Source of the DNA: Patellaria atrata CBS 101060
Taxonomy: Eukaryota
Direction: 5' to 3'
Length of the DNA: 64,000 bases
NCBI GenBank assembly: GCA_010093705.1
Contig: MU006104.1
Coordinates: forward strand, 62,001-126,000
Within the stretch, counting starts at the first letter, position 1; every line of letters starts with the position of its first letter. Below, piece by piece: positions 1 to 48,659 of the stretch. The notes under the pieces are model-generated. The model was not told where the DNA came from. It searched no databases and was given only the letters and a program-made list of their open reading frames with translations. Made by a program: the position numbers and the translations under genes.

Positions 1-110
1 GCCATCACCTTCCTATTTCAACAATAGCTTTTTCCTTTTCAACTCTAGATACCTTTACTTTCACAGAATCAATTTTCAATTTTCTAAAGCTAAGGCTATC
101 TCGAGTAACC

Positions 111-1684
111 TTACAGATTAGCCCTCTCACTCACCACCCCCTTCATCGCCTTCCCATCTCCCTTGCTCTCCCCCGCCCGCTCCTCCTCACCCGCAACGGC
201 CTTCGCCCAAACACCTTCCACATGCGGCTCACACCTATACCTGAGCAACCACTCCCCACAGCCGCCCCAACGCCACGGAAACGGATCATCCCCCTCCTCG
301 AACCCCATCTCCCGCGCACGCTTCCCTCCCTGCTGAAAAGCAGCATACGCGACATCCCTCCTTTGCTGCTCCTCCCCATCGTGCAGATGATATAGCGTCT
401 GCTGACGATTACCCGCCTCGACGACCCTCTCCGTCCTCGTGCGCCTGCACTCCTCGTAAACCCTGAGCGCGCGCCTCTTCCCCGCGACTTCCTTCCTCTC
501 CACGCGCGCGAGACACAGACCGAGCACCTCGGCGTCCTCGAGACTCATGCCCGCGCCGGACGCGAGGTACGGCAGCGTGGCGTGGACGGCGTCGCCAAGG
601 AGGGTGAAAGCACCGCTGGGATGGGACCAGGAGGGCTCGAGCGCGGGCCGGATGCACAGACGCCACTTGTGCACGCTTTCGCAGAGCGCGAGGAGTTTCG
701 GGATGCGAGGATCCCAGTCCGCGAAGAGGGCGCGCATTTCGTCGACGTTGCCGGCGAGGGTCGAGGGACCGTCTGGGGGGATGTCGTCCGGGACCAGAAG
801 GACCATGTTGAACAGCTTGCCGCCGCGGAGGACGTAATTAACGGCGTGGGCGGAGGGGCCGACCCAGTAGTTTACCTGGGGGTCTGTGACGAGGGGGGCG
901 AGCTCGGGGTCTTGCAGCATGGCCGAGGTGGAGAGGAGGAGACGGTAGGCGAGGTCACCTGTTTCGAGGGGGGCTTCGGGGTGGCCGAGGAGGATTTCCC
1001 GGCAGCGGGAGTTTATGCCGTCGGCGCCAATGATGAGGTCCGCGGTGAGCTTATCGCCTGTTACTAGTATCGCTGTTGCTGCTGCCTCGTCTTGGGATAC
1101 GATTACGTTTTGGACGCGCGCGTTAACCCGAACCTCGGCGCCTAGCTCGACCGCGCGGTCTAGGAGACACTTGTGCAGATTTGCGCGGTGGAAGTCCCAG
1201 AAGGGGGTTCCGCACTCCTGTTGGTAGTCGTGGAAGTCCATGTGGGCGAGGTGCTTGCCCTTCCAGCTGAGCATGTTGCACCGACGTGGACGGGTTGCGT
1301 GCGCGGAAAGGATCTCCTCCATTCCCCAGGAGAAGAGGATTCGCGAACTGTTAGGCAGACATTGTATGCCTGCGCCGATTTCTCCAATCTGTGGTGCGGA
1401 TTCAAGCACTTGTACTTTATGCCCGGCGAGCAGAATAGATATGGCGGCTCCGAGGCCGCCGAGGCCGGCGCCGATGATGAGGGTCTGGGGTTGTTAGGAG
1501 GGGGTAATGAAGGGATATATATAGAATGAGGATGGTGATAAGGGGAGCATAGATATGTACGAAATGGTAGAATAGATCTATAGGGAGAGTAGGTACGGGG
1601 TCAAAATTAACCCGCATGACTTACATTCAGCCTATCCTCTTCCTTCCTCTCAATCTTTTGCCTGATTTTCGGTGGTGAAGCCAT
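111..1684 (-). CDS. hxnX: FAD-dependent monooxygenase, salicylate hydroxylase/NicC-like; probable 6-hydroxynicotinate 3-monooxygenase (HxnX ortholog)
   Basis: Exon 1 1684-1625 (MASPPKIRQKIERKEEDRLN, donor GTAAGT) splices in frame to exon 2 at 1484 (after CTAAC...CAG), giving TLIIGAGLGG (FAD GxGxxG). Also carries IGADGINS (DG motif) and LLGDAVHATLPYLASGAGM (GD motif). C-terminus -ANL is PTS1-like. The symbol rests on family plus cluster context. Confidence 0.75.
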
Positions 1685-2156
1685 ACCTGTGATTTTTCTG
1701 TAACTCTCAAGCTCCAGGTTGTACTGGAATCAACGATTGAAGCATTCAATCAATAGCACAAAATCGGTTGCGGAGTTTTACAAGAATCATTCGGCCACAA
1801 GCAAGCAAGTAGGTCCTTGTACAGTATAATTCTCCTCAGCCTAATTCAAGGTTTGAGGTAGCGTCACTGCTCATGATAAACAGCGCAGCTCAAGCTCTAG
1901 TGTACAACAGACAGCTGTGGTGTCTTGTTGTACAGAAGGACAAACACAGCTTCACCGGACATAGTGAGCAGTTCTAGCTCTCCCATGACGAAAAAGACCT
2001 TATCATTAGGTACAAACGTACATTGTTTGTACATATTCCCGGCATATCGTGACGGAGTATTACATCTGCAGTAGGTACTCTTGTCAGATCGGAAGTCCGA
2101 ATACAAGGCTAACTTTATTAGTAAAATGTAGTACATCTGGATGCAGTCGTATCAAG

Positions 2157-2167
2157 AGTGGGGGTAA
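2157..2167. promoter_or_regulatory. AGTGGGGGTAA motif upstream of the hxnX-like gene (candidate C2H2 zinc-finger site, HxnR/CreA type)
   Basis: The identical 11-mer recurs at 7551-7561 in the hxnN/hxnV divergent promoter. Confidence 0.4.
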
Positions 2168-2584
2168 ATCTGACCGGAATCTTTCCGCAGATCAGAACTA
2201 AGTAGGACTAAGTAGGTAGAATGCTCTCCTGAGCTCCTCTCGCACAAATTTTGCTCTCAACCTAAAGAAAGTTACTCGGGACTCTTCCATCATTTGTTCC
2301 GCATGGGGTGGCTGACGTCTCACTTCGGATATGCCGACTCGACCATGAGAATTGCAAACCGAACCGGTGCAGATCTTAGGTTGTTACTCTGTGGATCTCA
2401 GAAGGATGGGATCTTTTATTTCTCATGTGCGAGATGGTACTCTAGACGGAGCTGGAAGAGTATCTGAAGGGTAACATCACTAGCCACGGAGGTATGATGC
2501 CACCGGTTTAAACACATCAGAGATATTTAATTGGTCATTCATGAATGATAGAGACTGAATTCTATGCATGAGCAACCAAGATTC

Positions 2585-3623
2585 TTAATTAGCTACCTGC
2601 TTCTTTAGAATATCTCCTGGAGGAGCTGGCATCATGGCTCCCTCTGGTGGTTGGTTCTTGGACTTGAAGTCGTCGCTCATTTCGCCCAGAGTAACCCACT
2701 CGACTCCTTCGTGAGAATTGATGTATTCGATAAGCCTTTCGTGCATGAGAAGGACATGGGGCCTACCAGACACATCTGGGTGGATGGTCATGGGAAAGAT
2801 GAACTCGTCGTACTCCCGATAGTAGTAATCAAAGTGGTCTTTCCAGATCGCTTCGACATCTCGCGGATTGACCCATCCATGACTATTGGGCGCGTTCTTG
2901 ATAAACATCATAGGTGGCTAGGAGAAATCAACAACCTGTATTGTTCGCGAAATGGAGCCTCACCTACCAAATCATCTATATACCATGACCCAGGTATCTC
3001 CACGAGACCAGTCTCTTTACCCTTAACCAATGGTTTCATCCACTCCTCTGCTTTTTTCGAATAATCAATCTTTGTCCATGTGTCGCCAGTTCTCAACCAG
3101 TAAGCTTGACAATCTTCATGACCCATACTGTGGTCGTATTCGATCCCGTATCTAAGAAGCAATTCTGTGCCCTCTTTGCTGGTTTCCCACCACGGGGCAA
3201 CGCTGCCTCGAGGAGGTTTACCACAGAAATCGGTGAGCAGCTTATATGTCTTATCGAGAACATCATGCTGCTGTTCTAGGGTCATATCTGCCGGGTTTTC
3301 ATGCGAATAGCCATGCAGACCAATCTCATGGCCTGCATCGCGCACCATAGCGCACTCCTCGGGGAATGTCTCTAAAGAATGGCCCGGAATGAACCATGTC
3401 GCCGTGATCTTGTATTTATCGAAGAGTTTGAGCAACCTCCGCGTGCCATGTGTTCCAGCGAAAATGCCTGTATACACGATCAATATCCATCGTGATAATG
3501 CTTATTGGCACGAGTACCTCTGGAAATATCGCTGCTTGAATCTGCTCCGCCATAAGATCCTAACCAGCCTGCGACTGCATCGATATCTACACCATAGCCT
3601 ACGAGCACTCGTTTCTTGCCCAT
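2585..3623 (-). CDS. hxnM: CE4/NodB polysaccharide-deacetylase-fold hydrolase of the HP0310/PuuE type; probable cyclic imide hydrolase (HxnM ortholog)
   Basis: ATG at 3623 gives [26 protein letters not shown]. Motifs [31 protein letters not shown] and [10 protein letters not shown] are present. Two introns (~3515-3470, ~2967-2917). No signal peptide. Confidence 0.8.
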
Positions 3624-4102
3624 TATTGCTGTCTAAGCTAGGTTAACTCAATGTGTCATATGGCGCTTGACGGAGAGAGTTTCACGAAACGGACTGATTT
3701 TCAGGAACAGGTGACGCAATGGGTGTATGTGTGTGGAAGAAGTACTAGACTACTCTAAAGCAAAGGGGAAACTGGACGTCTATCGACCTACGGGAATGCT
3801 CCCACTTTTGCTTTTTCTGGATGATTGTCACCGTTATCCAGGGCAAACCGTAGGCTGCGGGACATAGCTTTCTTCTTTGGCGGGGTTCACCCAAAGCTCT
3901 GTCATGCCCCGCTGCCCATGCAGCTATCCATAGCTCTGGACGCATGATACGGGAAAACTGTACAGGAATGGGAACTCACCCGTGACGTGTACCCGATGTA
4001 TGGTAGGTGGGGAGATTTGCTAATAGCAGATTCCATTTACCATTCTTCGTTGATTCTGGACATTTCCCCAATCCATTTTTTGAGACTCGATTGAGCGCAA
4101 TA

Positions 4103-5033
4103 ATGAGCCGAGTACGTCAATCACTCCGTGTGTTTAGTCCCTTAAGTTGGTATTGATAGATATCAACGATAGTTTTCATTGAAGGGACGGACAGCACTTG
4201 TCACTGGAGGTGCTCGTGGTTGTGGTCTTGCCTTCGCAGAAGGTCTCGCGGAAGCTGGCGCTCATGTTGCCATCTTTGACATAATTGACCCAGTCGAGGC
4301 TTTCTTCGATATTGAGAAGACCTATGGCGTAAAGACGTGTCATTACAAGTAAGTCACCAGTTCTTCTCTCAAGCAAATGAGTGACAGATATTAACAGTAA
4401 CAATAGGGTAGATGTCAGCTCGCTAGAAAGCCTGGAAGAGGGTTTCGAGGCTTTCAAGAAAGATTTCGGAGGTTCCTTGGACATTTGCGTTCCTTGTGCT
4501 GGTGTGAACAAGAATGTAGGATTTCTAGATACATCCCTGGAAGATTTCGAACGACTGATGAGCGTCAATGTGCGAGGTGTCTATTATACAGCCCAATTGG
4601 CAGCCAAGGCTATGATTGCGAACAAAACCACTCACGGTTCGATCATCCTAGTTGCTAGTATTGCTTCATACATGGCAATCCGGTCACAAATGTCATCAGC
4701 GTACTGCGGTACCAAAGGTGCAGTGAGGGCAATGTGCCCTGCCATAGCAGCGGAGCTTGTCAAGTATGGCATAAGAGTCAACAGTATTAGTCCTGGTTAT
4801 GTACGGACAGAAATGACGGCTCCATTCCCGCATCTACTTGAGAGCTGGAAGGACGAAATTATGAATGGTAGAATAGCAATGCCCGAAGATATCAGAGGAG
4901 GGTGTATTTTTCTAGCTTCAGATGCGAGTTTTTATATGGTAAATAAGCCCTAGCTCTTTCTCATCGATTATTCGCTGATTCGAAATAGACAGGTCAGGAC
5001 CTTTGTATAGACGGGGGTGTGACGAAGTGGTAG
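4103..5033 (+). CDS. hxnW: Short-chain dehydrogenase/reductase (polyol dehydrogenase type; probable HxnW ortholog)
   Basis: [18 protein letters not shown] (TGxxxGxG) from 4173, catalytic YCGTK and VNSISPG. The last exon [14 protein letters not shown] ends at TAG 5031-5033. Three introns; the first donor position is uncertain. Confidence 0.75.
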
Positions 5034-5318
5034 AAGGGACAAAGGACTTCGAAGGCACCTGGAAGGAACAGCGCATACATAGAACATGGTCGAGAATGTT
5101 TATCTTAGATTAAATACAATTCTGTGATACGATGATTGAAAATAAGATGTTGTAGAGCTGCTGGAGAAGAATCTTGATGACCATATTTGTTCAAGATCAA
5201 GATGGGAGGAATAACGCTAGTTCTAAAACGCGCTGTCACCTGACTGTTTCGACCTTAGAAATGTTCCTGACGCGAGAACTCTAGTTACATCCCCTTCCTA
5301 TTGCTATCTTCATCTAGT

Positions 5319-7396
5319 TTAATGCTTCGATTTGTTGATGATATCATCAATAACCTGAGCGACGCCGAGAACTTTTTCTTCTTCTAATCTGCGTCCAACA
5401 ATCTGCACGCTTATTGCCATGCCGTCCATCTTTTCAATATCATAAGTTTCCCAGTTCCATCTGTCTAGATCATTACGAGGGACATAAGATGATTGGATCT
5501 CATTGCCTGGATCCAACTCTTTCGAAACATCTCCAGACGGGATTACGACGGTGCTGTAATCTAGGAAATTCCAAATCTTGGTATATCCTACCCAGCGGCA
5601 TCTCCTATGCGGTACTGCACTGTGGGACATTGTAGGCATCAAGAGGATATCCACTTCGCGACCAGTAATAAGAGATCTCATGGAGTTCCACTTGTCCATA
5701 TAACGCTTCTGAGCCGCTAACTTACGTTTGTTGAGCTGCCAGTATTCATATACGGATATTGGCTTCCCTTTATTGACTAGAGCCTCAACATGCGGAATGA
5801 AAGGTTCTCCACCAGCTTGTACCTCACGGCGAATGTCTTCCCCACCATCAGCTGTATAGTATTGATCATAAACCCAAAGTTAGCGAATACAGTATTGCGA
5901 GGGTATAGGAATACATACCATTATTTCTATACATTCTCTGTGGTTATCTGCTGGATCCCAGTTTATGATCTCATGTCCTGCTTGTTTCAACTTCGCCGCG
6001 ACTTCCTTCAACACTCGTTCTATAGGCGGGTGAACCTTGACAACACCATCATCTAGCAAGAGTCCGATTACCAAAGGCCTTGATTTCACTTCATCATACA
6101 TAGCTTCTCGCCACGGTAGAGGGCAGCATTTTGGATCCAGTTTCCAGGGACATGAATTGATAACGGCTTTTGTTACCAGATGAATCGATGACAGACTACG
6201 AGCTAGTGGACCAATGACTGAAGGGACATGCTCTTGTCCTTCCGTGGAAACTGCTACATCCTGATATGGAAGGCGACCACTCTGAAAAGAATCAGCGTGG
6301 TAGCGGTCCAATGCTACAAGAGGAACGTACGCTCGGTTTTAGACCGTAAAGACCTAGCATATGCGCTGGAATGCGTATGCTACCGCCAATATCGGTTCCC
6401 CATCCAACCAAAGAGCCATTGAGCGCTAATAGCGCACCCTCGCCGCCCGTCGATCCCCCAGGGGTAAAATCTGGGTCCTTTGGGTGTACTGTCAGTCCCC
6501 AGAGCGGATTTTCAGTCTCGCACCACTAAAATTTATCAGTTAGTACGGATTAGTCCAGTCTTCTTTATCTTTCAATACCCTTTTTCAGCCACCGGAGGGT
6601 ACTTTCTGATAGTAGACAATATGTATAGTAAGCTGTGCTGTGACCAAGAAGTGCGATCACCATAAAGAGGAAAAAACGTACCATTATGCTCTGCGGTAGA
6701 TTAGTCTTCGCTATTATTACCGCTCCCATTTCCCTTAAAAGTTTTACTAGCACTGCATCATCTTTGGCAGGTTTGAAAGCTCTTCCAACATAGCCTATCG
6801 TCGAATCATAGTCCTTTACGTTGAATTGATCTTTCAAAGTCATAGGAATTCCATGCAATGGTCCGACGGTTTTTCCATACTTGCAGAATTCAACATCCAG
6901 TTCCCTCGCCTTTACAATTGCATCGTCGAAAAGAACTTCGGTAAGACTAGGCTCGTCAAACACATTGATAGTAACTGTGGAAAAACGGCAAACATACCAG
7001 TTTGTCTAGCACTGTCAGTCAAAAGACCTAGGGTATCTTACAGGCGCGAAGAATTACCAGCTTATGAGCAGCGCATGCTCTGATTGATATGTTAACTCAA
7101 GCTATAGTATCAACGTACAGTACACCACGCTTACTTTTGAATATATGCTCTTGCCACTTCAGAAGCCGTCAATTGACCGGACTCAAGTTTATGGTATAGC
7201 TCTGCAACATTTGCAATAGCTGTAACATCTTCCTCGCTTGATAGAAAGGCTCTCAACTATTTTGAAATTCAGACCTTCTTGGCACTTCTGAAAACGACGG
7301 ATATCGAATCACCTTTGAATGTCTTACGACAGCATCCTCTCGAGTCTGCCGCTTGCGCTGTGCTTTAATTACCCACTCTGGTTCTAGACTAGCCAT
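5319..7396 (-). CDS. hxnN: Amidase-signature family amidase (probable HxnN ortholog)
   Basis: GPLHGIPMTLKD (catalytic Lys), AKTNLPQS, TPGGSTGGEGAL, GTDIGGSIRIP and a C-terminal VQIVGRRLEEEKVL. Multi-intron gene starting MASLEPEW at 7396. Confidence 0.8.
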
Positions 7397-7550
7397 CGGT
7401 TCTCGCGATGAATACAGAACAAATTCTCTTGTTGAATACAAGATAGAAACGCAGTTAGAATATCAAAACTCCGTCTTTGATAGCAATTGATATCACTATG
7501 AGCGATTGGGGAATATTTGGGGCGATCTAAATCCACTGAGTACTCCGTAA

Positions 7551-7561
7551 AGTGGGGGTAA
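7551..7561. promoter_or_regulatory. AGTGGGGGTAA motif in the divergent hxnN/hxnV promoter
   Basis: Identical to 2157-2167. HGATAR (AreA-type) sites lie nearby at 7441 and 7478. Confidence 0.4.
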
Positions 7562-7916
7562 TTCTCACTCGTCACCGGGAGTTTGCCCGCATTACCTTAG
7601 CATTGCCCACTTACTACAACCTTACATCTCTCTCTAACAAAGATGGAACTCCTACGCTTCCTTTCCGACCGGTTTAGTAATGTTAGGAGAGGAGGTAAAG
7701 TCACGCCATTGAAAATAATGCCAGCGCATTTAGTGGCAGGTTGAGGAACATCGTCACAGCTGTTTCTTTGTTAACACTACATAGATCATACGCCCGGGGC
7801 AATAAAGTTCAGAAATAACCTCAAAACTCGAAGTTAGCCTCACCTCAAAGTGATGTAATACGTTTGCTCGAATACTCATCATGAAGCGTAGCCTTTCCCA
7901 GAAATCACCACCAAAC

Positions 7917-10063
7917 ATGTCTCCTAGCGCTCTACATCGGGAAGTCAACGGGGAACCAGCAGATGGCAGTATGGAGGTCGTTCAGCAAGAGGTCTCTAAT
8001 GGCCACAACGGCACTACCAATAATTCTCGAAGCGATGATCCATCTGTCGTAGTAGTTGGAGCAGGTCCAGCGGGATTGATGCTTGCGTTAGTACTATCCC
8101 CCCGCCCCTGGCCCAGCCCTTTAACCCAACACATATGATAGGTCAAATCTTGTACGGTATGGCATCAAAACGAAAATTGTAGACAATCGACCGAATAAAA
8201 CCTCAACAGGCAGAGCTGATGGACTTCAACCAAAGACCATCGAGACATTGCGTCAGATGAGGCTTGCGGACCCCGTTTTACGGAAAGGGGTCAGGATTTA
8301 TGATATATGCTTTTGGGTTCGTATGGGTGATCGCAAATCAAGACCTAAAACTAACTAGTAGGTTTTTCAGTCATCATCAAAGAATGAACAGCTACATCGA
8401 ACAGGAAGAGAAGTGCATTACCCGCCGGTTGTAGATGTCTTGGAACCGTATATCTTACTCGTTCACCAAGGAATGGTTGAAGAGTTATTCTTAGATGATC
8501 TAGCGGAAAGAGGTGTGCAAGTGGAAAGGGATACGACTTTCCTGGATTATGCAGGGTCGGAAGGAGGAGGACCGGTATTAGAACTTACATGCAAATTAGG
8601 ACTTTCGGAAAAGCTTAAAAAGATACGATCAGATTATATTGTAGGATGTGATGGCGCGCATTCCCAAGTTAGGAAATGTATTGATGGAGCAACACCAATA
8701 GGTACATCATCGGATGCAGTATGGGGTGTCTTAGATGGTGTTATTGACACGGACTTTCCTGACCTCTGGAGCAAAGTTGTTGTCTACTCGGAAGAGCATG
8801 GTTCAATCTTAATGATTCCCCGAGAAAGAAATATGACAAGGCTCTACATTGAACTAAAGTCAGAAGCAGGAGATGGTGCACAGAAACATTATGATCAGGA
8901 GTATGTCATGGCAAGGGCTCGAGACATTATGAAGCCATACAAAATCGAATGGACGACTGTTGGTAAGTTTTCATCCCTCAACTTATATTAACCGTATCTG
9001 ATAATTAGACAGAGTGGTTTGGTCGCTATCAGATCGGTCAAAGGGTAGCAGGCCGCTTCATTTGTGGAGATACAAGACTTTTCATTGCTGGAGACGTAAG
9101 TATATTTTTGCACCGGAAAGATCAAGTACTAATCACATTTAGGCAAGCCATACTCATTCTCCAAAAGCCGCCCAAGGCATGAATACCTCCATGCACGACT
9201 CCTGGAACTTAGCCTGGAAATTCAACCTCTCAATCCGTGGTCTAGCGAAACCAAATCTGCTCGGGACATACGAGCAGGAACGTCGCAAGATTGCCGAGGA
9301 CCTCATCGACTTCGACTACGAACACGCGAATGCTTTCCACGATGGTGATGCAGCGGCCCTCGCGGAAAACTTCAAGACGAACATCCGCTTTATAAGTGGC
9401 ATTGGTGCAGAATACGCAGCCAACATCCTCAACGAAAGCACCAAAAGTGCGCCCAAGGGAGACGCAAAACCTGGATGTCTCATGCCGCCATCCAAAGTAA
9501 CGCGATACATTGACGCCAATCCCGTGGACCTACAGTTGGATATCCCCATGCTCGGCCAATTCCGCGTCTTCCTCTTCACCCCAAAAATCCACGCTGCGAA
9601 ACCGTTCCTGGATGCCGTTTGCAACACTATCACATCCCAAACCTCCTTCCTGGGCCGATTAAGCGCAGCAGCAAGGGCATCTTATACCACCCAACCGGTC
9701 CCCAAGGCCGAATCAGACGCCTACGTACAAACCCAGCGCTACATCCCGCACTGTCCCCTCTTCACCTACGGACTCATCACCACGATGTCCAAAACGGATG
9801 TCGAAATCGCGGATCTCCCGCCCTTGCTGCAGGATAGTCGCTGGACGTTCTATCTCGACGACGTGCCGAAGTTGGATACGCGGGGTCAGACATGTACGCA
9901 GAAATGGCTGGGCGGTCTCGCGGATGGAGAAGTGGCCATCGTGAATGTGAGGCCGGATGGGTATGTGGGGAGTTTGGGGAGATGGCCGGTGGGGAGTGTG
10001 GAGGCTGGGGAGGCGGCTGGGATGTGGTTGGAGGGGTATTATGGGGGATTTTTGGAGGCTTAG
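7917..10063 (+). CDS. hxnV: Phenol 2-monooxygenase-like FAD monooxygenase (probable HxnV ortholog)
   Basis: [67 protein letters not shown] and a C-terminal thioredoxin-like VRPDGYVG. Four introns; alternative in-frame ATG at 7881. Confidence 0.8.
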
Positions 10064-11165: not shown

Positions 11166-11599
11166 ATGTCGAATCAAGGCTATTACAACAACGGCCCCCA
11201 ATACCCTCAACAAAGGTACCCATCCCTCTCCTACTGTATCCTTTATCCCATCCCTCCCGCAAACTTCCCATCATCCCGCGCTCCCGTCCCCCCTTACCCC
11301 CGGGTACCACCCCTCGAAACAACCGGCACCTTATAAGCGCAGAGAGTGCGAACACCTTCCGATGTTCTGTCCTTGGCGGGGTGGTCGATGGGTATGCGGA
11401 CGCGCAGTTGCCCTGATAAATATCCACTCAAGCCCGACGGAGAGCCTGGGCTCCCGGACGCTGCACCGGTAATTCTACCAGTCCAAAGTAAACACTGCAA
11501 AAGCTCTGCCGCTACCTTGTAAGCATGACCATCCCTCCGGGGTTAGTGTATTCTCTCGCCTGAGGGCGAGTTCTTTTATTATTTTTTAATTTCTATCTT

Positions 11600-11632
<33 letters not shown>

Positions 11633-12577
11633 GCACTACTGATGGTTATTCTATTTATTGTTACTTTGATATGGTAGATGGCATTTTGACGCAGTAGATG
11701 GTGTTTTGATGCTGGTGTATGAGGTTTAGAACTGCTTGGGTGGATGTGGTGATGAGCTGTGTCTTGCGAAAATTTGCACAAAGGTACTTCCAAGGAAAAC
11801 ATTGCTCATGTGCGAAACGGGATCCTTCTCCCTCCCCATGGGTGGCTTCCCAATCCGGCTCTCGGCTATCAAGAATACCTCAGTTCGAATCCAGGCTATC
11901 TCCATTCGACTTTCTGGTTCGACTCTTTACTCGGAATATCTAAGGACCTTTGTAACCGGGACCGTTCACATCAACTGCACAACATCACACATGCTAATCT
12001 CGATTTCGTATTCGAGCACGAGGCTAACCTATCGCGTAGTTATGGCCCGCCGCAAGGTTACCAGCAAGGTCCGCCTCCGGTACGTTTTTCGTTTCCTTTG
12101 CCCCGCTCAATCACTTCTCTAGCAAAAGTCACAGAAGCACAAAGTCACAAAACCAACCGAGTCGAAGAAGCTCCAAGTCCCCAAAACCCTCAAGTCCCCA
12201 AACCTACCAATTCCCCAAATCCCCCAAGTCCGAATCCCAAGTCCTAAACCCACCCAAATCCCCCAAACACCCAAATCCCCAGGCACTCACGCGAAATAGA
12301 TGCAATACTCCCAAGCGCCCCCTCAAACCGTCTACGTCAAAGAAAAGAAAGACAGGGGATGTCTGATGTCATGGTATGTTCTCCCCCCCCTATCCCCTCT
12401 TACCCTTATCTCGCTCCTCGATTCCTTTCCTCCCAAACTCGGGATTCGGGGCCGAGGTTAAGGTTCGAAGTTTAAAGTCGGTAACTAATACAACCCAGTC
12501 TCGCCGTCCTCTGCTGCTGCTGGCTCTGCGAGGAAGGATGTGAGGAGTGCTGCGAGTGCTGTTTCGAGTGTTGTTAG
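11166..12577 (+). CDS. CYSTM-family cysteine-rich tail-anchored membrane protein (80 aa, 4 exons)
   Basis: Exons 11166-11215, 12040-12079, 12300-12373 and 12499-12577 join in frame (243 nt), all GT-AG: MSNQGYYNNGPQYPQQSYGPPQGYQQGPPPMQYSQAPPQTVYVKEKKDRGCLMSCLAVLCCCWLCEEGCEECCECCFECC*. Start context is CCACCATG. Confidence 0.85.
11601..11630 (+). repeat. (TGC)10 microsatellite in CYSTM intron 1
   Basis: Directly visible trinucleotide run. Confidence 0.95.
12170..12281 (+). repeat. Degenerate C/A-rich short tandem repeat (CCAAGTCCCC/CCCCAAAT units) in CYSTM intron 2
   Basis: Repeated ccaagtcc and ccccaaat motifs. Confidence 0.6.
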
Positions 12578-12896
12578 TCGTCCTGTCTTATGTCGTCGTG
12601 GCTTGTCTTGTCGTGTTCTGTACTATACACAAATCATTTATTTTTATACTGGAGGATTTGGGAGATAATTCTACGGGGTGGGTGTGGTTTCAATGTTGAG
12701 ACTGGGTATTCTGGTAGGTGGGATCAGCTTGGCTGGGTGTTTGGTAATTACTATTCCTCGTAGAGTCAGAAGCGACCTTGAAGGTTGTAATCTCAGACGA
12801 CTCAAATTTAAATCCACACCGGAAACGGAAGTTCGATTCAACAGTATCGACGTTAGTCCCTACGACGACAACCTGAGAGCTCTATCCATACGCTTG

Positions 12897-13012
12897 GAAA
12901 AAAAAAAAAACACAATCGAAACCACTGATCCCACTCAATACGTAAAAATATGTGAGGTATGTAAATCCTCGCAAAAAAAAAAAAAAAAGAAAAAAGAAAA
13001 AAGAAAAAAGAG
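12897..13012 (+). repeat. Poly(A)/A-rich tracts between the convergent CYSTM and VPS8 3' ends
   Basis: A-run at 12897-12910 and an A-rich run at 12973-13012, directly after the VPS8 stop. Confidence 0.9.
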
Positions 13013-13016
13013 AACA

Positions 13017-16000
13017 CTATACACAAATCGGACACCTCAACCCCTCCCCCTCCACTCCCTCCCCCCTCTCCTTCTCCAAACAACGCCGATGCCACAAATG
13101 CCTACAAGCGAACACAACCAGCGGACCCAACCCCTCACCCTCACCCTCACCCTCCCCATCGCCCCCCTCCTCCTTCACAACTCCCTTCCCCCTACTCAAC
13201 CTCCTCGCCTCCACGCCCCCCCTCCCCTCAACCCACCGTCTCCTCCTCTCCCCTTCCCTTTCCCCCTCCCTCCGTTCCCAAGACTCCCACACCGCACCCC
13301 CAACCCCAGGTCCCCAAACCCTCCTCCTGCATCCCTCGCACACCTGGCCTCTGGGCCTCCAGCCCCGTTGTCTTAGTTCCCCGACCTCCTGCACGTGGCC
13401 AAAGACATCTTTATCCAAGAACGCGTTCGCGAGGGCCAGGAGCGTGGACTCGAAGGCGTACGCGGCGAAGATGGCGGCGAGGGTTTGTCTGAGGTCCTGC
13501 AGGGTGGGGGAGCGAGCTGAGGCACGGGTCAGGAAGGCACGGAGGACGAGGAGGAAGGATGACGATTCCGTTGCTGAGCTGCGGGTTGCAGCTTCGTCTG
13601 TTGGTGGTGTGGGTTTGGAGGCAGATGTGGATGTGGATGTGGATGTGGCGGCGAGGAGGGCGGTGAAGGTATCTTGGACGAAAGAGCGGAGCGTGGATGT
13701 TATCTTCTCCGCGTTGACGGGGGAGGGGGCTGAGGTGGGATTGGCGAGGGAGGAAGAGACGGTGCGGGTTAGAGCGACTGAAACGTCGATGAGATCGAGC
13801 CAGAGGAGTTCGTGGAGGGCAAGATCCGCTTCTAAGACCGCTGCGTTGCGATTTTTGGGTCGCGGGGCGGTGGGGGATTGGTGTGCTGCGCGTGTTTGGC
13901 CTTGACAGAGCCAGATGCCGACTTTGACGTATTTTTCGACGGCTTCTAGGAGATCTTCGGCGGTTTCTTCGGTGTTGGAAGCGTCGGGACTCTCGGCGGC
14001 GGCGTCGATTAGACCTGTTAACGCTACTTCTAGGGTGTCTAAATGCTTCACGAGTCTATCCATCGCGTCTCGGACAAGACCGTCTCGTGCCATGAGTACG
14101 ATAGCTGCGTCGATAACACCGCTGCTTTCCATGGCAGGGAGAACTTCTCCTAGTCGAAGATCGCTTGTTGTGAGAAGAGCAACATAATCTGAGACATGTG
14201 GAGGGTCGAAACTACACATAAGACGAATATAACGCTCAATGATGCTGGGTGTAGTATTACTATCGGTCTGTCTTTCCATGGACTGTAATTCAGGCTCTAG
14301 TAGAACGCGTAGGAAAATAAACTGTGCGTATGATCCGTCCTCTAGAGCGTCTAGAACGTCCTGCAAGAGTTGCGGAGCATATTGTTTCAGTGTCAGAGCC
14401 GTCCTGGCAGTGTCAATGCTAGCTAGATCTTTTGCGTGTTTGACTATTACACGTTGAACATCCGTTACTTGTTTCTTACTGAGACCACGACTGGGTCTCA
14501 AGCAGTCCTCCAGATAATCGAAGATTTCCTCGCGATTGTCTTCATCATCGAAGTAAGCTTGTAGAAGCTTGGGATAATTCCGAGCAGCTCTGTAAACCGA
14601 CTTTAAAACGCGATGAAAGCTGGCTCTTTCAAAAGCCGGTATCAGCGTTGGTATATCTGAAGGCTTATATGCTGATAGAAGGTATTCGACACTGAGTTGA
14701 CAATCATCTGCAATCTCTTCTGATGGATAGTTGCATAAGCCAACTAGGATATTGTGCATCGACGAACCGGGCACTACGATGTGTTGAGGAAACTTAGGGA
14801 GGTTTCGGGCGAGGAACATATAGATATAGATAGCGTCTTCCCGCTCGAGATCTTCCGAAGTCACAAGGCCGAGTAATACGGTGACAATGTACTGCCTAGT
14901 AGGTGTGAGAGTAGTTGACACGCCTTGCTGCTTAGCACTTCCGTTCATTGCGGGTGTTTGTGTGCCATTCAGGAAACTATCCTCGAACGCCTCATTCAAC
15001 ATACTCATCAGGCTTCCAGTGTCAAATCGCATGATAAGGCGGAGATACGGATAAACAGGTTCTTCCGCCCCATTGATCGTGGTATTGAATACCTCTCTAC
15101 TACCTTGAGGCCACGCAACGGCTTTATTGGAGAATAGAAACCAATATAGCTCCCCTTTCGCTTTGGACGCTTCATCGTCTGAAAGAGCATTTCCGCTTGG
15201 ATATACTCGGCCTGTCAATGCATAAGCTAGAAAAGGAAATAGCTTCATTGCTGATGAATGGTATCTGGAATACAGCGCTTCGTCCATCTCACCACTGTCC
15301 ACGAGTACTTTGATAAGCGACAGAATATCTATTAGTGGTGTAATATAGTCCTCAATCGCTTGTGTCCATACATAAACAAGCGCATCATACAGTGTGTGTT
15401 GCTTGCACAAGCTCGTCACTTGGTTGATATCCATGGTTTGTGTTTCGAGATGACAGATCATTTCTTCTAGTCTTTCTGTACGTTCTTGCGAAGCATAGAA
15501 AGTTATAAGCTCTTTGAGAACATTCGGTGGAATACTTGTTATCTCTTCCTCAAGAATATAGGGTTCCAGGATTTCGAAGAAGATTCCCTCCGCAGAGCTC
15601 TCCTCGTATTTATCGTAGACATCTTCGAAAAGGAAGTCAAGCTCTTCCATGCTTAGACAGGCGGTGAAAGTCGATGCTGTTAGGTCGCTCAGTCGGAAAT
15701 TCATATCTTCAGTATTCTTGCCAGAGTCGCGTTGCCCGAAAGTGTACTTCAGCGAAGCGGTAATCATTTCGAGCAGTTTCTCCTGAACCAAGCCATGTCG
15801 GGCAGTATCATCCTCGGGGAGGCCAACGGTGAGTCTATCAGCATCGCCGTTGTAGTAAGATGTTGCGAGAGCTATGGCAGCAATGTAATCACCCTCCTCC
15901 ATTAAGGCAAATAGTCGATCTGCCCAGTTTGACAGTGAGCCAATTGAGACGTCGTTAAATCCAAGTAAAAATAACCGTCCTTTATACGCTCGAAAGCTCA

Positions 16001-21338: not shown

Positions 21339-22132
21339 CTACCAGTCGTCCTGCCAATACCGTCCCAATAACTTCCCATTTAATCCAGGTGGATTCTTCA
21401 GGTAATTGTGCAATAGAAATTTCACCGTCCGGCATTGGTCATGTCTTCCCTCAGTTTCGGTGTTGTTACTGCGGTAGCACGTGTGGCTGTTTGGACAACA
21501 CGCCCTGCCCTCGCATTCGCAGGTGTTGAATATTACCTTTGTGGCATCTTCCCGTGAACCCTTAGTTACGACCAGGGGATCTAGAAGTGGTCGTAGGTAC
21601 GGCACTATGAGCGCGACACTTAAGCGTTCCCACGAGAGCAGATCGCGGGTGATACCAAGGCCCAGGATATGTAATGATTTTAAACTTGGTGCTGTATCCG
21701 CAAGCATTCGCCAGACATTAGGGCGGTCTATAATTGACTGATCAACCTGCGTACGAATAGTACGAATAGTCCTCAATAACCGTCGATTCGTGATACCGAT
21801 CGTTTCAAGGAATCCATGCAGAACCTCCAGGTTATCGAATCTGAATTGAGTTTCTTTGTACAAGATAGCTGACGTTTCTTCATTGAGTGTACGATTGGCT
21901 AAGAGAAAGGGTAGTTCGGAAAGCTTTGCACTGGTCCTTGCTCGATTAACAAATGCGTCAGTAAATCCTCGAGCGGCTCTTGAACCAATGAACTCAATCA
22001 AGTTACATCACCCGGCCATCCTTGGGTAGGATAAGGTAGACCTCATCGCGGAGTTCTGCAGGATGCTTCAAGAAGGGAAATATTCCGCTTCAACTCTCTT
22101 CCGGGCCACTTGCGGCGCTTATCTCCCGACAT
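21339..22132 (-). pseudogene. Disrupted F-box-like (2EXR/DUF7730-like) protein gene, paralog of 22723-23568
   Basis: The F-box-like motif FPFLKHPAELRDEVY is bracketed by in-frame TGA (22090-22092) and TAA (22003-22005) and is out of frame with the 220-aa body, which aligns with the neighbouring gene. Confidence 0.65.
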
Positions 22133-22722
22133 GTAATGGCGGTAACGAGCTATCAACGTCCACCCTTGGCGGCTCGAGGCTTCGAGACTTCGTCTAGATT
22201 ATGTATTAGAACAATGTTATAGCAGATATATGATAGTGATCATACCTCTACTTCCAACAATTTGATAGGTTCACTTCTGATATAGAAATGTATGTATGGT
22301 TTGGCCAGTCTTATGTGATGCTCCGTGGTGTTAGGGACTTGAATATGTAGGAAAGAACTATTGAGAAAGGGAGGAAGAGAAGTGTTTTTGAGAGGGAGGA
22401 AAGAAGATTTCTTAAGAGAGGACGGGGGAGCGCTCTTGGCTTAGGAGCTAGGTCCCGCCAGTAAAAGTAAATAACACGAATGAAAGAAATCATTGCCGCG
22501 CGTGACTCTAGTTCCTTACTTTTGCAACATTGTGGTGAAGATAGAATGTGGTGGTAAGAACCAATGAGGTTGTTACAATCCAAAGGGGAAAGGAGAGGCT
22601 AGGTTATAGGTCTCGCTCTTACCTACCGCCTTAGTTCTATCCTCCAACAAAACTGGAAGATCTCAAATTCACCTTGCTTTACGAGCTTCAAGTTTCAACG
22701 AAGTCATGGCTGAGATGTCGGT

Positions 22723-23568
22723 ATGAAGCAGAAGAAAACGCAATCTTTGACGAGTCCTCCCCTGCTAGCTTTTAATCAGACAATGAGACATGCTGAGCCT
22801 CGGGTCTGTCCTGCTAAACAGCTGGAGAAGACTTCAACCAACTACTTCCGCTTCATGGACCTCCCCGCTGAACTCCGGATTGAAGTGTATCGTCATATAC
22901 TCAAGTCCCATACCGACAACAAAATACGTTTATATTGGTCTGATGAGACACATAACTTTGGGGTCCGAATGAGTGGGCTTTTCAAAGATAAAGTATCCTG
23001 GACCTCCAAGGGCGAAGTCATCAAATCCTGTCTAACAGCACATCCGTTACTGTTAACTAGCCGTGGGATCAATATGGAGACTGCGACTGTTTTGTTCAAA
23101 GAGTCATCATTCTTCTTTCAGGACTTGAAAGCTTTCCATACCTTTCTCCAGATGACCAGTCTCAGGAATCGGCAGCAATTAGCTTACATCAGCCTTAGAC
23201 CTCATACCGATTCAGATTTGCGTAGTTTCAACCACAGAACGTCGCAATTACTGGCGGATGCAGCAACGAACTTAAAAGCTCTTCATTTGATAGGATTTTA
23301 TGTTTGGAAAGGACAGGGTTCCAAAGGACTTCTTGAGACGGCTACTTCTAACGCCCGTAACTTAGTCGGATTCCTTGGCCCATTTTTGGATGCTTTGGTT
23401 GGAGTAAAAGGTTCGTTCTCTGAAGGAATCAAGGTTATACATACCCGATTCTGTGATTGTGGGTATGACCTTCCAACGGAGTGTGATGGCGCGCGCGATC
23501 ACAGTATGTGCATCACGACTAAGAGGCTCATGGGAGAATATTGGGATGAGAATCGCAGAAAGACATGA
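22723..23568 (+). CDS. F-box-like (FRFMDLPAELR) fungal hypothetical protein
   Basis: Intact 281-aa ORF with FRFMDLPAELRIEVYRHIL, LLLTSRGINMETATVLF..SFFF and a Cys/His-containing C-terminus. Confidence 0.75.
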   Translation: MKQKKTQSLTSPPLLAFNQTMRHAEPRVCPAKQLEKTSTNYFRFMDLPAELRIEVYRHILKSHTDNKIRLYWSDETHNFGVRMSGLFKDKVSWTSKGEVIKSCLTAHPLLLTSRGINMETATVLFKESSFFFQDLKAFHTFLQMTSLRNRQQLAYISLRPHTDSDLRSFNHRTSQLLADAATNLKALHLIGFYVWKGQGSKGLLETATSNARNLVGFLGPFLDALVGVKGSFSEGIKVIHTRFCDCGYDLPTECDGARDHSMCITTKRLMGEYWDENRRKT

Positions 23569-40163: not shown

Positions 40164-41315
40164 TCAGACCGTTGGTCTAATCATACATTGAATACCCATT
40201 GAGGCTGCTTTCGTCAACACATCCTTTTCTTCATTTGGGTTGAGGAGGCGCCGTGTACCGTCCTTAGAGAGCACAATTCCCTGCACATGAAGACTTACTC
40301 GCGTTTTAGGTGATTTGCTTCTGAACTCTAGTAACACGTCCTTTTCCAACGCCGTCCCCTTTATATACCTCATTCTGTGACATATTGCGAGTTTCAATGC
40401 AGGTCTAGTGACCTGCGGAAATAATTGCCTGCCCATCCACGTTTCGAGGTGCCCTTTCACCAGCAGATTCAATTCCGCTAGTCTACAGCAGTTGCTGATT
40501 GTGTCCATACAGTTCAGGAAAGCTGCCTCCAGGCGGTCTCCTTCCGGCTCTCGAATAATCTCAAACCTTGTGTGAAGACATGAAGCTTCAATAAATGAGG
40601 CTAACAGGTTGTCCATTTCCTTCTGACTCTGCCATAGAGGTATATGAATTGAAAGGTGGCGGATTAGACCACAAGATTCCGCGCCTATGGTTCTCAGGAA
40701 GCATTCCAGTGCGATGAAACTGTGCGGGCCAGAAAACTTAAATTTGTTCTCTCGGTAAAAGACATCTCGTGCTACGCGGTGTTCCTCCCTGGAGATTCTG
40801 AAGAGTTCCACGGGGAACTTGATATGAGATCCTTGGGTGATGAATGACTCGCCTGGTACGTGAGAAGTTGTGTAATGACACTGAAAGCGATCGCACCGTT
40901 GGGAATTTCTCTCTTGCCTTAACGCAAAGTAGTTTCGAGAGACTCTCTCCTTAAGTTGAAGATCCGTATCGTTGGACTCGAACCACATGCGGTGCCAACC
41001 TCTCACGAAAAATGAATTGTAAGTTGCCGACATACCGGGATGATTTTCAGATCTGCCGATATCGATACCACGAAAGAGATCAATCGGTTGACTGCTGACT
41101 AAGAGGTGCTTGTAAATACCTTGTTTCAATTCGACTGGTAAGGAATTCCAACCGATTGCTGGTTTGACAATACTTTTGTCTATTGGTGAGGGCGTTGAAT
41201 AGAAACTGGTTGCTCCATGGGCTTCTTTCTCCTTTGCCACGTCAACAGCATTGCTTGATAGGGATTCTGAGGTTGTAAGTGTCAATTTTGCCATGTTATT
41301 CGTAATCCAGGTCAT
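40164..41315 (-). CDS. F-box-like fungal hypothetical protein
   Basis: Intact 383-aa ORF with IGWNSLPVELKQGIYKHLL and ELFRISREEHRVARDVFYRENKFKF...FLRTIG..IRHLSI. Confidence 0.75.
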   Translation of the reverse strand: MTWITNNMAKLTLTTSESLSSNAVDVAKEKEAHGATSFYSTPSPIDKSIVKPAIGWNSLPVELKQGIYKHLLVSSQPIDLFRGIDIGRSENHPGMSATYNSFFVRGWHRMWFESNDTDLQLKERVSRNYFALRQERNSQRCDRFQCHYTTSHVPGESFITQGSHIKFPVELFRISREEHRVARDVFYRENKFKFSGPHSFIALECFLRTIGAESCGLIRHLSIHIPLWQSQKEMDNLLASFIEASCLHTRFEIIREPEGDRLEAAFLNCMDTISNCCRLAELNLLVKGHLETWMGRQLFPQVTRPALKLAICHRMRYIKGTALEKDVLLEFRSKSPKTRVSLHVQGIVLSKDGTRRLLNPNEEKDVLTKAASMGIQCMIRPTV

Positions 41316-42690
41316 ATCGTTATCCAGATCGTGCCTAGAAACGCTGGGCCTAACCAGATTTCTTGATTAGTTAGTACCTCCAACTTTATGTTGTACACTA
41401 AATAAATATCTCGAAAAGTATTCTGACATGTAGAGCGAAACCATCTTATCGCTTATGATATGTCGTATACTCCCTAGAGCGGAGCGGAGAACAATGTTTG
41501 AAGCAACCGACCAGTAGCCCAGAAGTATCACTAGCGGGGGAAGGAACGACATACCTGGAGAAATCAGGAGCGCTTTTCTGTCGCTTACGTCGTGGAGTTC
41601 GAATTCGGTCGGCCATATTACCCAACCTTGGGCATCAGCAGTTCGCGAGGTGGATAATGACGTCGAAATCTAAGGGGTGTCACATCCGCCTATCGTAATA
41701 TACTTGCAACATCAACGAAATGGCCATACAAGAAAGTTATAAAGGGCGGGAAAACGAGAGAAGGGGAAAGAAGAAGAAGAAGTCAGCTTGTGAGGCAGTA
41801 AGTCTCACGAGTCTTGGGGCATGTGACTTTGAGGAGTCGTTACATTATCTCCACCCACATTCACAACTCATTGGGGTGGCGAAATCATGAGAATCGAAAA
41901 TGGACCAGCTAACAATGTTTTGAACATGAAATGGTGTGTCCCTCAGCTTGCTTCTTTTCTACCATGTCGGTATTCCTTAGTCTTGTACCTTTGCCGAATG
42001 AATTATGGTCAGTCGGTACATCGGAGATATCACGAGGTTCTGCATTGTATTGATGTTTAACCCATTCCTACGGGTGGGCACTTCCGTATATGTTCGGCCT
42101 TTGTATACAGTCACGCCTTGTAAAGTAAGCTCCTAGGGTGAAATCATACCCTCCACCGTCATAGGTTCCGCGCCTGATACACTCACTTTCGAGACGGTCG
42201 CCAACTGCTATGTATAAAGGTTTGAGACCGTATGAATGGCGCCCAAACTGTGCGTAGGCCTTGGTTGGAAAGCCCGTGGAGATTGGCAGATACTACAAGA
42301 TAGACGGTCTACAAGTAGTTGCTCGGCAAGCGCACAGAGGCCGGGAGATAACAACTTTGAGGTCGGGGGATTGAGATGGTCAAGTAACCCGTTTAGAGCA
42401 AGCTTTTCGTACGTTCTCGCCTTTTCTGTACATAGTTGAAGTCCTTTGATGGCGGAGTGTACAGTACAGCATATGAGTGACCCACAACAATGGACGAGAT
42501 CGTTATTGATGTCCCTAGGATTAAATCAGTGATATTATCTATTATAGCAAGTGTGTTCTGAGAGTAGTGTTCACTACGTGTTTAATTTAGAGCTCTCCAA
42601 TCCGCCGAAGCAATCTACAGTGACAAACCCTTGCCCATTCAACCCACCGCTTAAATCCCGCCATATCAATTAATCAGGCTCACCCTTCAA

Positions 42691-43890
42691 TCACCTCTCA
42701 CTTAATAACGATGGGTGCAAGTTTCGAATGCACACTCGAGGACCCATTGACCGGGCGTTCTCTACCACACCATCCGGTGGAGCGTCTGAATGGTCGTGCC
42801 AGCCCCTTTCAACCTGAAGTCTCGCGCGAACATTGGGATTACGAGCCGAGAAGTCGGATCAAAGTTCTTTCTCATACCTGCTACGTTCCAGATAGTAATT
42901 TTTTTTCTTGTAGGATGTCATGTGCTTAACCGTTATGGCTTGCGGTTCAACCCATTGTTGTCGCTTTTCATGCGGCAACAGCAGGTTGACATGGAGGACC
43001 CTGTCGCTGTGGACATCGTCGAAGAGATCAAAAAGTCGCAAGTAGGCACTTGAAAGGGGATCATCGCTCGGATCTACCGCTAGTTTTAACCTCGTCTCGT
43101 AGCACGAAGCTTCAATGTAATTAGTGGCGAGTCTATCCATGTGTATGCCGTCATGCAAGATTGGTGCATGGATCGTTATACGGTGTAGCATTCTGCTCGC
43201 TTTGGATCCAATCGTGGCGGGAAAACATTCAAGAGCTATAATACCATGTTGTCCGGAGAACACAAACTCGTTTTCTCGGTAAAAGACATCTTGAGCAAGG
43301 ACTGAGTCTTCCCCGGACGTACAGAAAAGCTCCACGGGATAGGTTTGGTGTTGTAATATCTGATGTACCTGACTTTATACCAGGAGCTAGTACCAACACC
43401 CTTTGACGAAGATGAAAGGGTGAGTCTTCTCTCACGGTTCCAATTCTTATAGCTCCGCAGCATCCTGTACTCCAGACGTCCAATGTCTCTTCTCACCGCG
43501 TTATCAACTTTATTTCTCGTAGTAGACTCCGCAGCGCCTTGTTGAAGAAGACCGTTGTACTTTTACTCCATTTCCGAATGGTGAAGTCCTGCATATTTGA
43601 TAATCAGCTTAGTACTAACAATTAGTAACCGATATACCTTCTTTTTGAATTCCACGGGTAAGCTCTTCCACCCCACAGTCGAAGTGATATCAGTGTTTTC
43701 GTTCCGCGAGTCGGGAGCGCTGATCGTCTCTCCATAACTATTCGCAACCTTGATTCATACACGAGATATAACCTAAGATAAAACAAAGCGTAAGAATTAC
43801 CTGAAATTCCGCCAGTCCAAGGGACTGATACGTCATGTTTGAGTTCCCTTCGCCGTCGGCGGTCTCAACCGAATCTATCCCGGTCATTGA
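42691..43890 (-). pseudogene. Pseudogenised tandem paralog of the 40164-41315 F-box-like gene
   Basis: VGWKSLPVEFKKKVYRLL, VELF..AQDVFYRENEFVFSGQHGIIALECF.ATIG and a C-terminal ARSMG all align with the intact copy. Premature TAA at 43563-43565, frameshift at ~43340 and premature TGA at 42859-42861. The 5' end is approximate. Confidence 0.8.
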
Positions 43891-46866: not shown

Positions 46867-48394
46867 ATGCCCAGTGCCACCGGGTCCAACTGGGAGAAGT
46901 ACCAGAAGAAGTTCGCCGACGATGAGGTTGAAGAGAAGAAGATAACTCCTCTATCAGACGAGTGCGTTGAATTCATCTATTTTAGGGCTTATTAGTCAGC
47001 CGCTAATGAAATATAGGGACATTCAGGTGCTGAAGACGTATGGCGCGGCTCCGTATGCGGCGGAGCTCAAGAAGCTCGAGAAGGAGATAAAAGACAAGCA
47101 GACAAGCGTAAACGAGAAGATAGGTTTGTGACTATCTTTTTACTCCGACAGTTCTATACTAATATGCTGTAGGTGTTAAGGTATTTGCCTCTTACCAGCC
47201 GCGTACATGTCCGCATTCTAATAACGGAATTAGGAATCAGATACCGGTCTAGCACCACCACATCTATGGGACATTGCAGGAGACAGGCAACGAATGCAAG
47301 AGGAACAGCCACTACAAGTCGCAAGATGTACGAAGATAATACAAGACGAAAAGGATCCAGAGAAGAGCAAATATGTCATCAATGTCAAGCAAATAGCTAA
47401 ATTCGTCGTCAACCTGGGTGAGAGGGTGAGTCCGACGGATATCGAAGAGGGCATGCGAGTTGGGTATAAACACCACTTCCACTTCAGCTCATGACCCTTC
47501 TAACCATGCTCCAGGGTCGACCGAAACAAGTACCAAATTCTCCTCCCTCTTCCCCCTAAAATCGACCCATCCGTAACCATGATGACCGTAGAAGATAAAC
47601 CAGACGTAACCTACGGCGACGTTGGCGGCTGCAAAGAGCAGATTGAAAAGCTCCGCGAAGTCGTCGAAATGCCTCTGCTCTCCCCCGAGCGCTTCGTCAA
47701 CCTCGGAATCGACCCTCCCAAAGGCGCCCTCCTCTACGGCCCTCCCGGGACGGGAAAAACCCTCTGCGCCCGCGCTGTGGCTAATCGCACCGATGCAACC
47801 TTCATCCGCGTCATCGGCTCTGAGCTGGTGCAGAAGTACGTCGGCGAGGGCGCCCGCATGGTGCGCGAACTATTCGAAATGGCCCGCACGAAGAAAGCCT
47901 GCATCATCTTCTTCGACGAGATCGATGCAGTGGGCGGTGCACGCTTCGACGACGGCGCTGGCGGTGATAACGAGGTCCAGAGAACCATGTTGGAGCTCAT
48001 TACCCAGCTCGACGGCTTCGACTCCCGGGGGAACATCAAAGTCATGTTCGCCACCAATCGGCCCTCGACGTTGGACCCGGCGCTCATGCGTCCCGGCCGT
48101 ATCGACCGCAAAATCGAGTTCTCGCTCCCGGATATGGAGGGCCGCGCTAACATCCTTCGCATCCATGCCAAGAGTATGAGCGTCGAGCGCGATATCAGAT
48201 GGGAGCTCATCTCGCGGTTGTGTCCGAACAGCACGGGCGCGGAGCTCAGGAGCGTGGCGACGGAGGCGGGCATGTTCGCCATCAGGGCGCGGAGAAAAGT
48301 CGCGACGGAGAAGGACTTTTTGGCCGCCGTGGATAAGGTTATCAAGGGGAATCTGAAGTTTAATTCCACGGCGACTTATATGCAGTACAACTAA
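46867..48394 (+). CDS. RPT1: 26S proteasome regulatory AAA-ATPase subunit 7 (Rpt1/PSMC2)
   Basis: Starts [28 protein letters not shown], Walker A GPPGTGKT, Walker B IIFFDE, ends TATYMQYN. Includes an 8-nt microexon at 47173-47180. Confidence 0.95.
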
Positions 48395-48659
48395 TAAAAG
48401 TTTCGATTTATTGATTGTGGTCGCCGTGGAGTTGGTTTGCAGAACAGCATAAGGATGGCTTTGATAGTCCGTAGCATTGCGATATATTATAGCAATAGCA
48501 CTTTCAACAAAAGAAACGAAACTACTCAAGCATAGTATTTTAAAGAAGTAAACAGAAAGATTTCAGCATATATAACCTACACAAACTGGAGATACGCACA
48601 AAGGACTAACCCCATTTTCCCAACCCTTCCCTTCCACCACCTAATATCGCACACACCCC

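Follow-up and report, generated by a model that had tools for sequence, protein, structure and literature searches.

The hxn genes in and beside the window

The window analysed here is a stretch of 64,000 nucleotides from Patellaria atrata CBS 101060, taken from contig MU006104.1 (C16 below; window base 1 is C16:62001 and the window is C16:62001-126000) of an assembly of 28.7 Mb in 127 contigs. Window positions 111-10063 are filled exactly by five adjacent, intron-containing genes that are very probably the orthologues of hxnX, hxnM, hxnW, hxnN and hxnV of the fungal nicotinate (vitamin B3) pathway, and that together with hxnS, hxnT and hxnR would form an eight-gene hxn cluster. An earlier reading of the letters alone (the sequence-only reading) had named the five enzyme families at this place, and gene models and Pfam matches agree with it: FAD_binding_3 for X, Polysacc_deac_1 for M, adh_short_C2 for W, Amidase for N and FAD_binding_3 plus Phe_hydrox_dim for V. 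It had also described a single block, X-M-W-N-V. The order and adjacency stand, but the block is only part of the cluster, since hxnS, hxnT and hxnR adjoin it to the left of the window; the cluster therefore comprises eight genes, of which the window holds the right-hand part. Their order is S-T-R-X-M-W-N-V and their orientation <S T> R> <X <M W> <N V>. The features are as follows, in window positions unless marked C16 (FAD, flavin adenine dinucleotide).

C16:55340-50809, minus strand: hxnS, xanthine-dehydrogenase-type; open frame, 1493 residues
C16:55926-57200, plus strand: hxnT, old yellow enzyme, divergent from hxnS; open frame, 408 residues
C16:57894-61339, plus strand: hxnR, regulator with zf-C2H2 and Fungal_trans, convergent with hxnX; open frame, 932 residues
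1-110: left edge of the window; the cluster continues beyond it on C16
111-1684, minus strand: probable hxnX orthologue, FAD monooxygenase, putative 6-hydroxynicotinate 3-monooxygenase (decarboxylating); 2 exons, 477 residues, ending ANL
1685-2584: upstream region of hxnX; one GHGGGG (predicted HxnR site) and three HGATAR
2585-3623, minus strand: probable hxnM orthologue, HpPgdA-like CE4 hydrolase, putative cyclic imidase; 3 exons, 312 residues
3624-4102: upstream region shared by the divergent hxnM and hxnW; three GHGGGG
4103-5033, plus strand: probable hxnW orthologue, short-chain dehydrogenase; 4 exons, 253 residues
5319-7396, minus strand: probable hxnN orthologue, amidase-signature enzyme; 8 exons, 535 residues if the last intron is cut at the ancestral position
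5868-5918, minus strand: last hxnN intron, 51 nucleotides; GT donor, branch-point-like CTAAC, AT end, in-frame stop inside
7397-7880: upstream region shared by the divergent hxnN and hxnV; one GHGGGG and two HGATAR
7881-10063, plus strand: probable hxnV orthologue, phenol-hydroxylase-type FAD monooxygenase, putative 2,5-dihydroxypyridine hydroxylase; 5 exons, 658 residues (661 with an alternative acceptor)

The frames of the seven genes other than hxnN are open, and their introns are GT-AG except for one GC-AG. The cluster is bounded by a PP2C-like gene to the left of hxnS and, to the right of hxnV, by a short gene without a Pfam match and then Vps8.

Orthology of the individual genes

Orthology was assessed by residue signatures, by the identity of each protein to its own-genome paralogues and to cluster-located copies in other fungi, by a tree for X and, for N only, by an Aspergillus terreus anchor. 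The comparison set consisted of 67 metagenome loci retrieved with V, 31 of which hold at least two hxn genes. Active-site residues of Aspergillus nidulans HxnM, HxnX, HxnV, HxnW and HxnN were taken from the lists in PMC9304392; the A. nidulans X, M, W, N and V proteins are given as 461, 307, 254, 543 and 620 residues (PMC8478523).

The hxnX model is identical to public model P0001. All eight active-site residues (A. nidulans Q59, V223, H232, V234, Y236, V247, L248 and L249) are kept, seven of seven at exact spacing and the Gln offset by one, and the full signature occurs in 115 of the 120 close homologues among the matches listed and in none of five own-genome X paralogues. The best of these paralogues is 45% identical to X, compared with 51-66% for cluster copies of other fungi, and in a tree of 26 rows the window protein, 10 cluster-located copies and 12 database homologues form one clade (support 99/96) with three own-genome paralogues outside it. 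X deviates at seven of 205 conserved columns, a level reached by 14 of 119 homologues. Its nearest named homologues are from Dothideomycetes. The closest X paralogue (45%, C4:916239-919013; L002, L090) adjoins a gene for a major facilitator superfamily transporter, with which it may form a small hydroxybenzoate-type catabolic pair.

HxnM has all eight of the expected residues (D13, D15, H87, H91, V125, D200, D201 and H248) at numbers identical to those of A. nidulans; its nearest structure is HpPgdA (3qbu, E 4e-69) and the gene is single copy in the genome. HxnW carries TGxxxGxG at 14-21 and the tetrad N116, S146, Y161 and K165 (N119, S147, Y162 and K166 in A. nidulans), but these are general features of short-chain dehydrogenases/reductases (SDRs), and the assignment of W is carried by its position in the cluster. 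Own-genome paralogues of W reach at most 38%, against 65-86% for cluster copies elsewhere, a comparison that left out one 32% match each in L038 and L040, both regarded as other SDRs. For HxnV, of the A. nidulans residues D65, I126, K231, L243, I245, R253 and Y255, the K-L-I-R-Y spacing is exact, with the Asp one and the Ile two places off; own-genome paralogues lie at 32-33% (45% over a 59-residue piece) and cluster copies at 48-64%. The Lys-Ser-Ser triad of HxnN has spacings of 75 and 24, equal to the published values, and the gene includes an 8-nucleotide microexon at 7005-6998. ATEG_05674 (P0352) is the cluster amidase of A. terreus (PMC7842363), and its best match in the present genome is the window amidase (61% over 493 residues); the main genome matches of other amidases in the ATEG_05674 comparison are at 37-40%. 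Own-genome paralogues of N do not exceed 42%, compared with 54-70% for cluster copies (L051, a partial match, 32%).

Of the genes to the left of the window, HxnS carries FATALH, and the other genome copy, an hxA paralogue on contig C6, has the HxA form FTALF; the FATAL insertion with the His is the signature that separates HxnS from HxA (PMC5746545). HxnR has N-terminal C2H2 fingers and PF04082 and is linked to hxn genes. HxnT has the family, position and His/Asn pair expected, with the triad Tyr 10 residues further on. Synteny with these three genes, the residue signatures and the ATEG_05674 match together bear out the proposal of the sequence-only reading that the five genes are hxnX, hxnM, hxnW, hxnN and hxnV and belong to the nicotinate pathway. 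Two details of hxnR are recorded separately: its first intron (C16:58099-58162), which interrupts the second zinc finger, starts with a GC donor, the donor in four related loci being GT, and its second (C16:58625-59105), at 481 nucleotides, is far longer than the others.

Gene order and its precedent

The five-gene block recurs in the same order and orientation in three of the 67 loci (L025, L026 and L060). N and V are divergent neighbours in 18 of the 22 loci that hold both, and M and W in seven of seven; several loci are near-duplicates, so these counts are not independent. The divergent M/W and N/V pairings noted in the sequence-only reading are thus present, but the novelty it implied for them is ruled out by section 2.3 of PMC8478523, which describes both couples as conserved across classes of Pezizomycotina except in Aspergillus. 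The X-M-W-N-V order and the pairing are already published, and it is A. nidulans that is rearranged. We found no literature on nicotinate in the species of P0001, and the genus is absent from the main text of bioRxiv 2021.04.19.440407; figure S5B of PMC8478523 may show this or similar genomes.

Two variant arrangements were seen among the loci. Nine (L044, L045, L047, L050, L051, L056-L058 and L072) have an X-M-N-V block without hxnW between M and N. In seven of the 67 (L022, L023, L034, L052, L055, L075 and L081) a gene for a Rieske-type ring-hydroxylating oxygenase (PF00355 plus PF00848; 6671-7984 in L022 and L023) adjoins hxnV. L022, L023 and L034 have the order Z-Y-P-W-Rieske-V, a fragment without X, M and N, followed in L022 by a flavin mononucleotide (FMN) dehydrogenase gene that is pfdB-like. 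The main text of section 2.5 of PMC8478523 lists no Rieske gene under its 'additional genes'; the gene may be the sign of a variant cluster whose entry substrate differs.

The last intron of hxnN

The last intron of hxnN (5918 to 5868) ends in AT, and a full-length protein of the ancestral type requires a GT..AT junction. Nineteen related loci were examined, and the flanking motif was found in 16; in 15 of these an intron lies at the same place and ends in AG (15/15), and L080 is intronless there. Retention of the intron would lead to an in-frame stop, and use of the next AG, 16 bases downstream, to a frameshift that meets a stop 24 codons later. In the public model of the amidase, P0121, that next AG is combined with a donor four bases further in (within 5918-5852), at the cost of four residues lost and two altered; the model also skips two small exons of 22 and 8 nucleotides (window 7135-6947). 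Of the 113 homologues that span the altered segment (120 aligned), 112 keep it intact, and the exception is P0121 itself.

The idea that the AT stems from a mistake in the assembly is not supported: contigs of two runs (X1 and X2, from one sample and probably DNA, showing no splice joints) have no other letter at the site, support that is not independent because the sample is perhaps the source of the assembly. Run X3, with 164 bases covered, was left out. A long-dead pseudogene was ruled out, as a second lesion is absent and changes at conserved columns are not in excess (five of 193, which is typical; 42 of 101 homologues are as high).

From these sequence features hxnN appears to be either non-canonically spliced or recently impaired. 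By our own estimate, which is not a measurement, a null or near-null gene is given somewhat less than an even chance, splicing at the ancestral site is thought rather unlikely and use of shifted sites slightly more unlikely still. GT-AT introns are rare: a corrected annotation of Ganoderma contains 18 such sites (0.02%; PMC11590231), and one case is conserved between human and mouse (PMC1557818). In A. nidulans other amidases make the deletion of hxnN leaky (PMC9304392); given this, and the 19 amidase matches in the present genome, the pathway could still run. The change from AG to AT would mark either a GT-AT intron of a rare, still functional kind or the beginning of gene loss.

Probable loss of hxnP, hxnY and hxnZ

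The genome was searched with cluster-located copies of hxnP, hxnY and hxnZ from the metagenome loci, which had been identified from their position and Pfam family, and no orthologue of any of the three was found. The best own-genome matches are 40-42% for P, 38-43% for Z and 30% for Y (47% over 43 residues), compared with 55-94%, 65-91% and 69-75%, respectively, among the cluster copies elsewhere. Seven DIOX_N matches are present in the genome, none of them close to HxnY. Nor do the three genes lie to the right of hxnV or to the left of hxnS, where the neighbours are Vps8 and the PP2C-like gene. As the search scores best candidates only and the assembly may be incomplete, loss of hxnP, hxnY and hxnZ from this genome is probable rather than proven. 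Such a loss fits the mild phenotypes of A. nidulans, in which deletion of hxnN, hxnP, hxnZ or hxnY merely weakens growth (PMC9304392).

Perhaps the locus is a stripped-down but working eight-gene cluster that lacks HxnP, HxnZ and HxnY and makes its terminal amidase by way of a non-canonical GT-AT intron. We put this forward tentatively and regard it as doubtful. If true, it would be a natural test of HxnY being outside the core pathway, and inefficient splicing would throttle the last, ammonium-releasing step. A natural cluster without hxnY, hxnP and hxnZ could in any case help to settle the role of HxnY.

Promoter motifs

GHGGGG is the predicted HxnR motif, derived from prediction and not from experiment (PMC8478523). 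It is found in five of the five upstream regions, seven times where 2.85 are expected (11 of 500 shuffles were as high), and a relaxed HxnR motif is found 25 times against an expected 13.55 (2/500 shuffles). As the scan tried three motifs and covered the hxn upstream regions alone, the motifs lend modest support only.

Proposed pathway and alternative explanations

The genes, their order and their orthology signatures are observed here, and every reaction and the regulation we infer from A. nidulans, in which the steps have been worked out (PMC9304392). With the cluster, the fungus would be able either to draw nitrogen from nicotinate, 6-hydroxynicotinate or 2,5-dihydroxypyridine or to detoxify these compounds. 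HxnS would convert nicotinate to 6-hydroxynicotinate, which HxnX would decarboxylate and hydroxylate to 2,5-dihydroxypyridine; HxnV would then form 2,3,6-trihydroxypyridine. Ring reduction by HxnT would give a dihydroxypiperidinone, oxidation by HxnW 3-hydroxypiperidine-2,6-dione, and opening of this imide by HxnM alpha-hydroxyglutaramate, from which HxnN or another amidase would release alpha-hydroxyglutarate and ammonium. HxnR would activate the genes through the divergent promoters S/T, M/W and N/V and the hxnX promoter.

Several observations weigh against this interpretation. The homologue matches listed included no A. nidulans Hxn entries, so the orthology tests are indirect. The AreA-type motif HGATAR is not enriched upstream of the genes (10 found, 11.42 expected; 360/500 shuffles). 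Our hxnT model has two exons, and a three-exon model is described as broadly conserved (bioRxiv 2021.04.19.440407). The X paralogue L003 matches five of the seven X positions, showing that the catalytic residues are partly family-wide, and the branches that lead to the paralogues in the X tree are long. The solved structures nearest to X are a 4-hydroxybenzoate decarboxylase and vanillate 1-hydroxylase (8gsm, 8x38), ahead of NicC. Finally, HxnX ends in ANL and not in the peroxisomal signal SRL of its A. nidulans counterpart; ANL is outside the classic consensus of the type 1 peroxisomal targeting signal (PTS1). Among the 120 X homologues listed, 12 end in ANL, 27 in AVL and one in SRL.

One alternative is that the genes are hxn orthologues whose main substrate is another wood-decay aromatic or pyridine, such as 4-hydroxybenzoate, vanillate or quinolinate-derived pyridines, with loss of the dedicated transporters marking a shift to an internally made substrate. 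The hydroxybenzoate-type decarboxylating hydroxylases that are the best PDB matches of X, the induction of the A. terreus cluster on salicylate (PMC7842363) and the failure to find hxnP, hxnY and hxnZ would all suit it. We nevertheless hold it to be very improbable: the signature of X is that of HxnX, as in nearly all of its close homologues listed, a separate and more distant X paralogue is present on C4, M, N and S would have no role in the breakdown of nitrogen-free aromatics, and all seven catalytic genes are kept with hxnR. Another possibility is that the cluster is decaying and no longer supports growth on nicotinate, with hxnP, hxnY and hxnZ gone and the hxnN splice acceptor lost. The AT for AG in the last hxnN intron, where retention gives a stop and the next AG a frameshift, the same three unfound orthologues and a deviation of X above that of most homologues would fit such decay. 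The other seven genes, however, have open frames and GT-AG introns (one GC-AG), the deviation of N is ordinary, and the A. nidulans deletions of hxnN, hxnP, hxnZ or hxnY only weaken growth (PMC9304392); we therefore consider decay unlikely. That unrelated paralogues (a salicylate hydroxylase, a polysaccharide deacetylase, an SDR, an acetamidase and a phenol hydroxylase) have come together by chance is scarcely conceivable. The five families are common in fungi, and the genome has 32 SDR and 19 amidase matches, but the block recurs in three loci, the N/V and M/W couples recur more widely (some in near-duplicates), each of the five genes resembles cluster copies from other loci more than it does the paralogues in its own genome, and synteny with hxnS, hxnT and hxnR already refutes it.

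Neighbouring sequence

The short gene between hxnV and Vps8 (window 11166-12470) is multi-exon and rich in Tyr, Pro and Gln; in the single frame scanned it has no Pfam match. At hxnX and the 3' end of hxnV (window 1-1500 and 9501-10000) the GC fraction climbs to 0.56-0.68, against 0.41-0.50 over M, W and N, with comparable rises at 12001-14000 and 48001-50000. Two pairs of neighbouring open reading frames (window 21339-23568 and 40164-43374) look like tandem paralogues by eye.

Significance and comparison with known systems

The eight-gene cluster proposed here adds little to the pathway, which was worked out in A. nidulans and whose gene order is published; the family is known, and this member of it is unexceptional. 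Its oddities are limited to three accessory genes not found and one changed splice site, two points that could be useful to the few groups that study hxn genes. The sequence-only reading had warned that automated names would miss the pathway, and this is true of two public models, 'FAD binding domain-containing protein' for X and 'amidase' for N. As the public names are generic and the P0121 amidase model leaves out two exons and shifts a splice site, the value of the present assignment lies mainly in annotation.

The closest likeness is to the 11-gene hxn cluster of Cyphellophora europaea (PMC8478523), in which hxnR and hxnP flank the five genes X, M, W, N and V. Between X and V stand N and M, with W separating the two, and V-N and W-M form couples; S and T are divergent there too. 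The present cluster differs from it in the missing hxnP, hxnY and hxnZ, which were not found elsewhere in the genome, and in an hxnN last intron without AG. With A. nidulans (PMC5746545, PMC9304392) it shares seven catalytic genes and the regulator, with active-site residues kept, but A. nidulans has its genes in three clusters with X/W divergent, whereas the present genome has one cluster with M/W and N/V divergent, and the two HxnX proteins end differently (SRL and ANL). Function is proven in A. nidulans and predicted for the present cluster. In a survey of A. terreus and other Ascomycota (PMC7842363) the same five extra genes are recurrently clustered, and ATEG_05674 is the likeness of the window amidase noted above; in A. 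terreus, however, the genes for the deacetylase and the amidase are located outside the nine-gene cluster. Outside the fungi, X matches NicC of Pseudomonas putida (PDB 5eow) at E 1e-43, with the substrate His and Tyr kept. The routes part after 2,5-dihydroxypyridine, the ring of which is cleaved oxidatively by the P. putida nic pathway, whereas the fungal route as described in PMC9304392 hydroxylates, reduces and then hydrolyses it.

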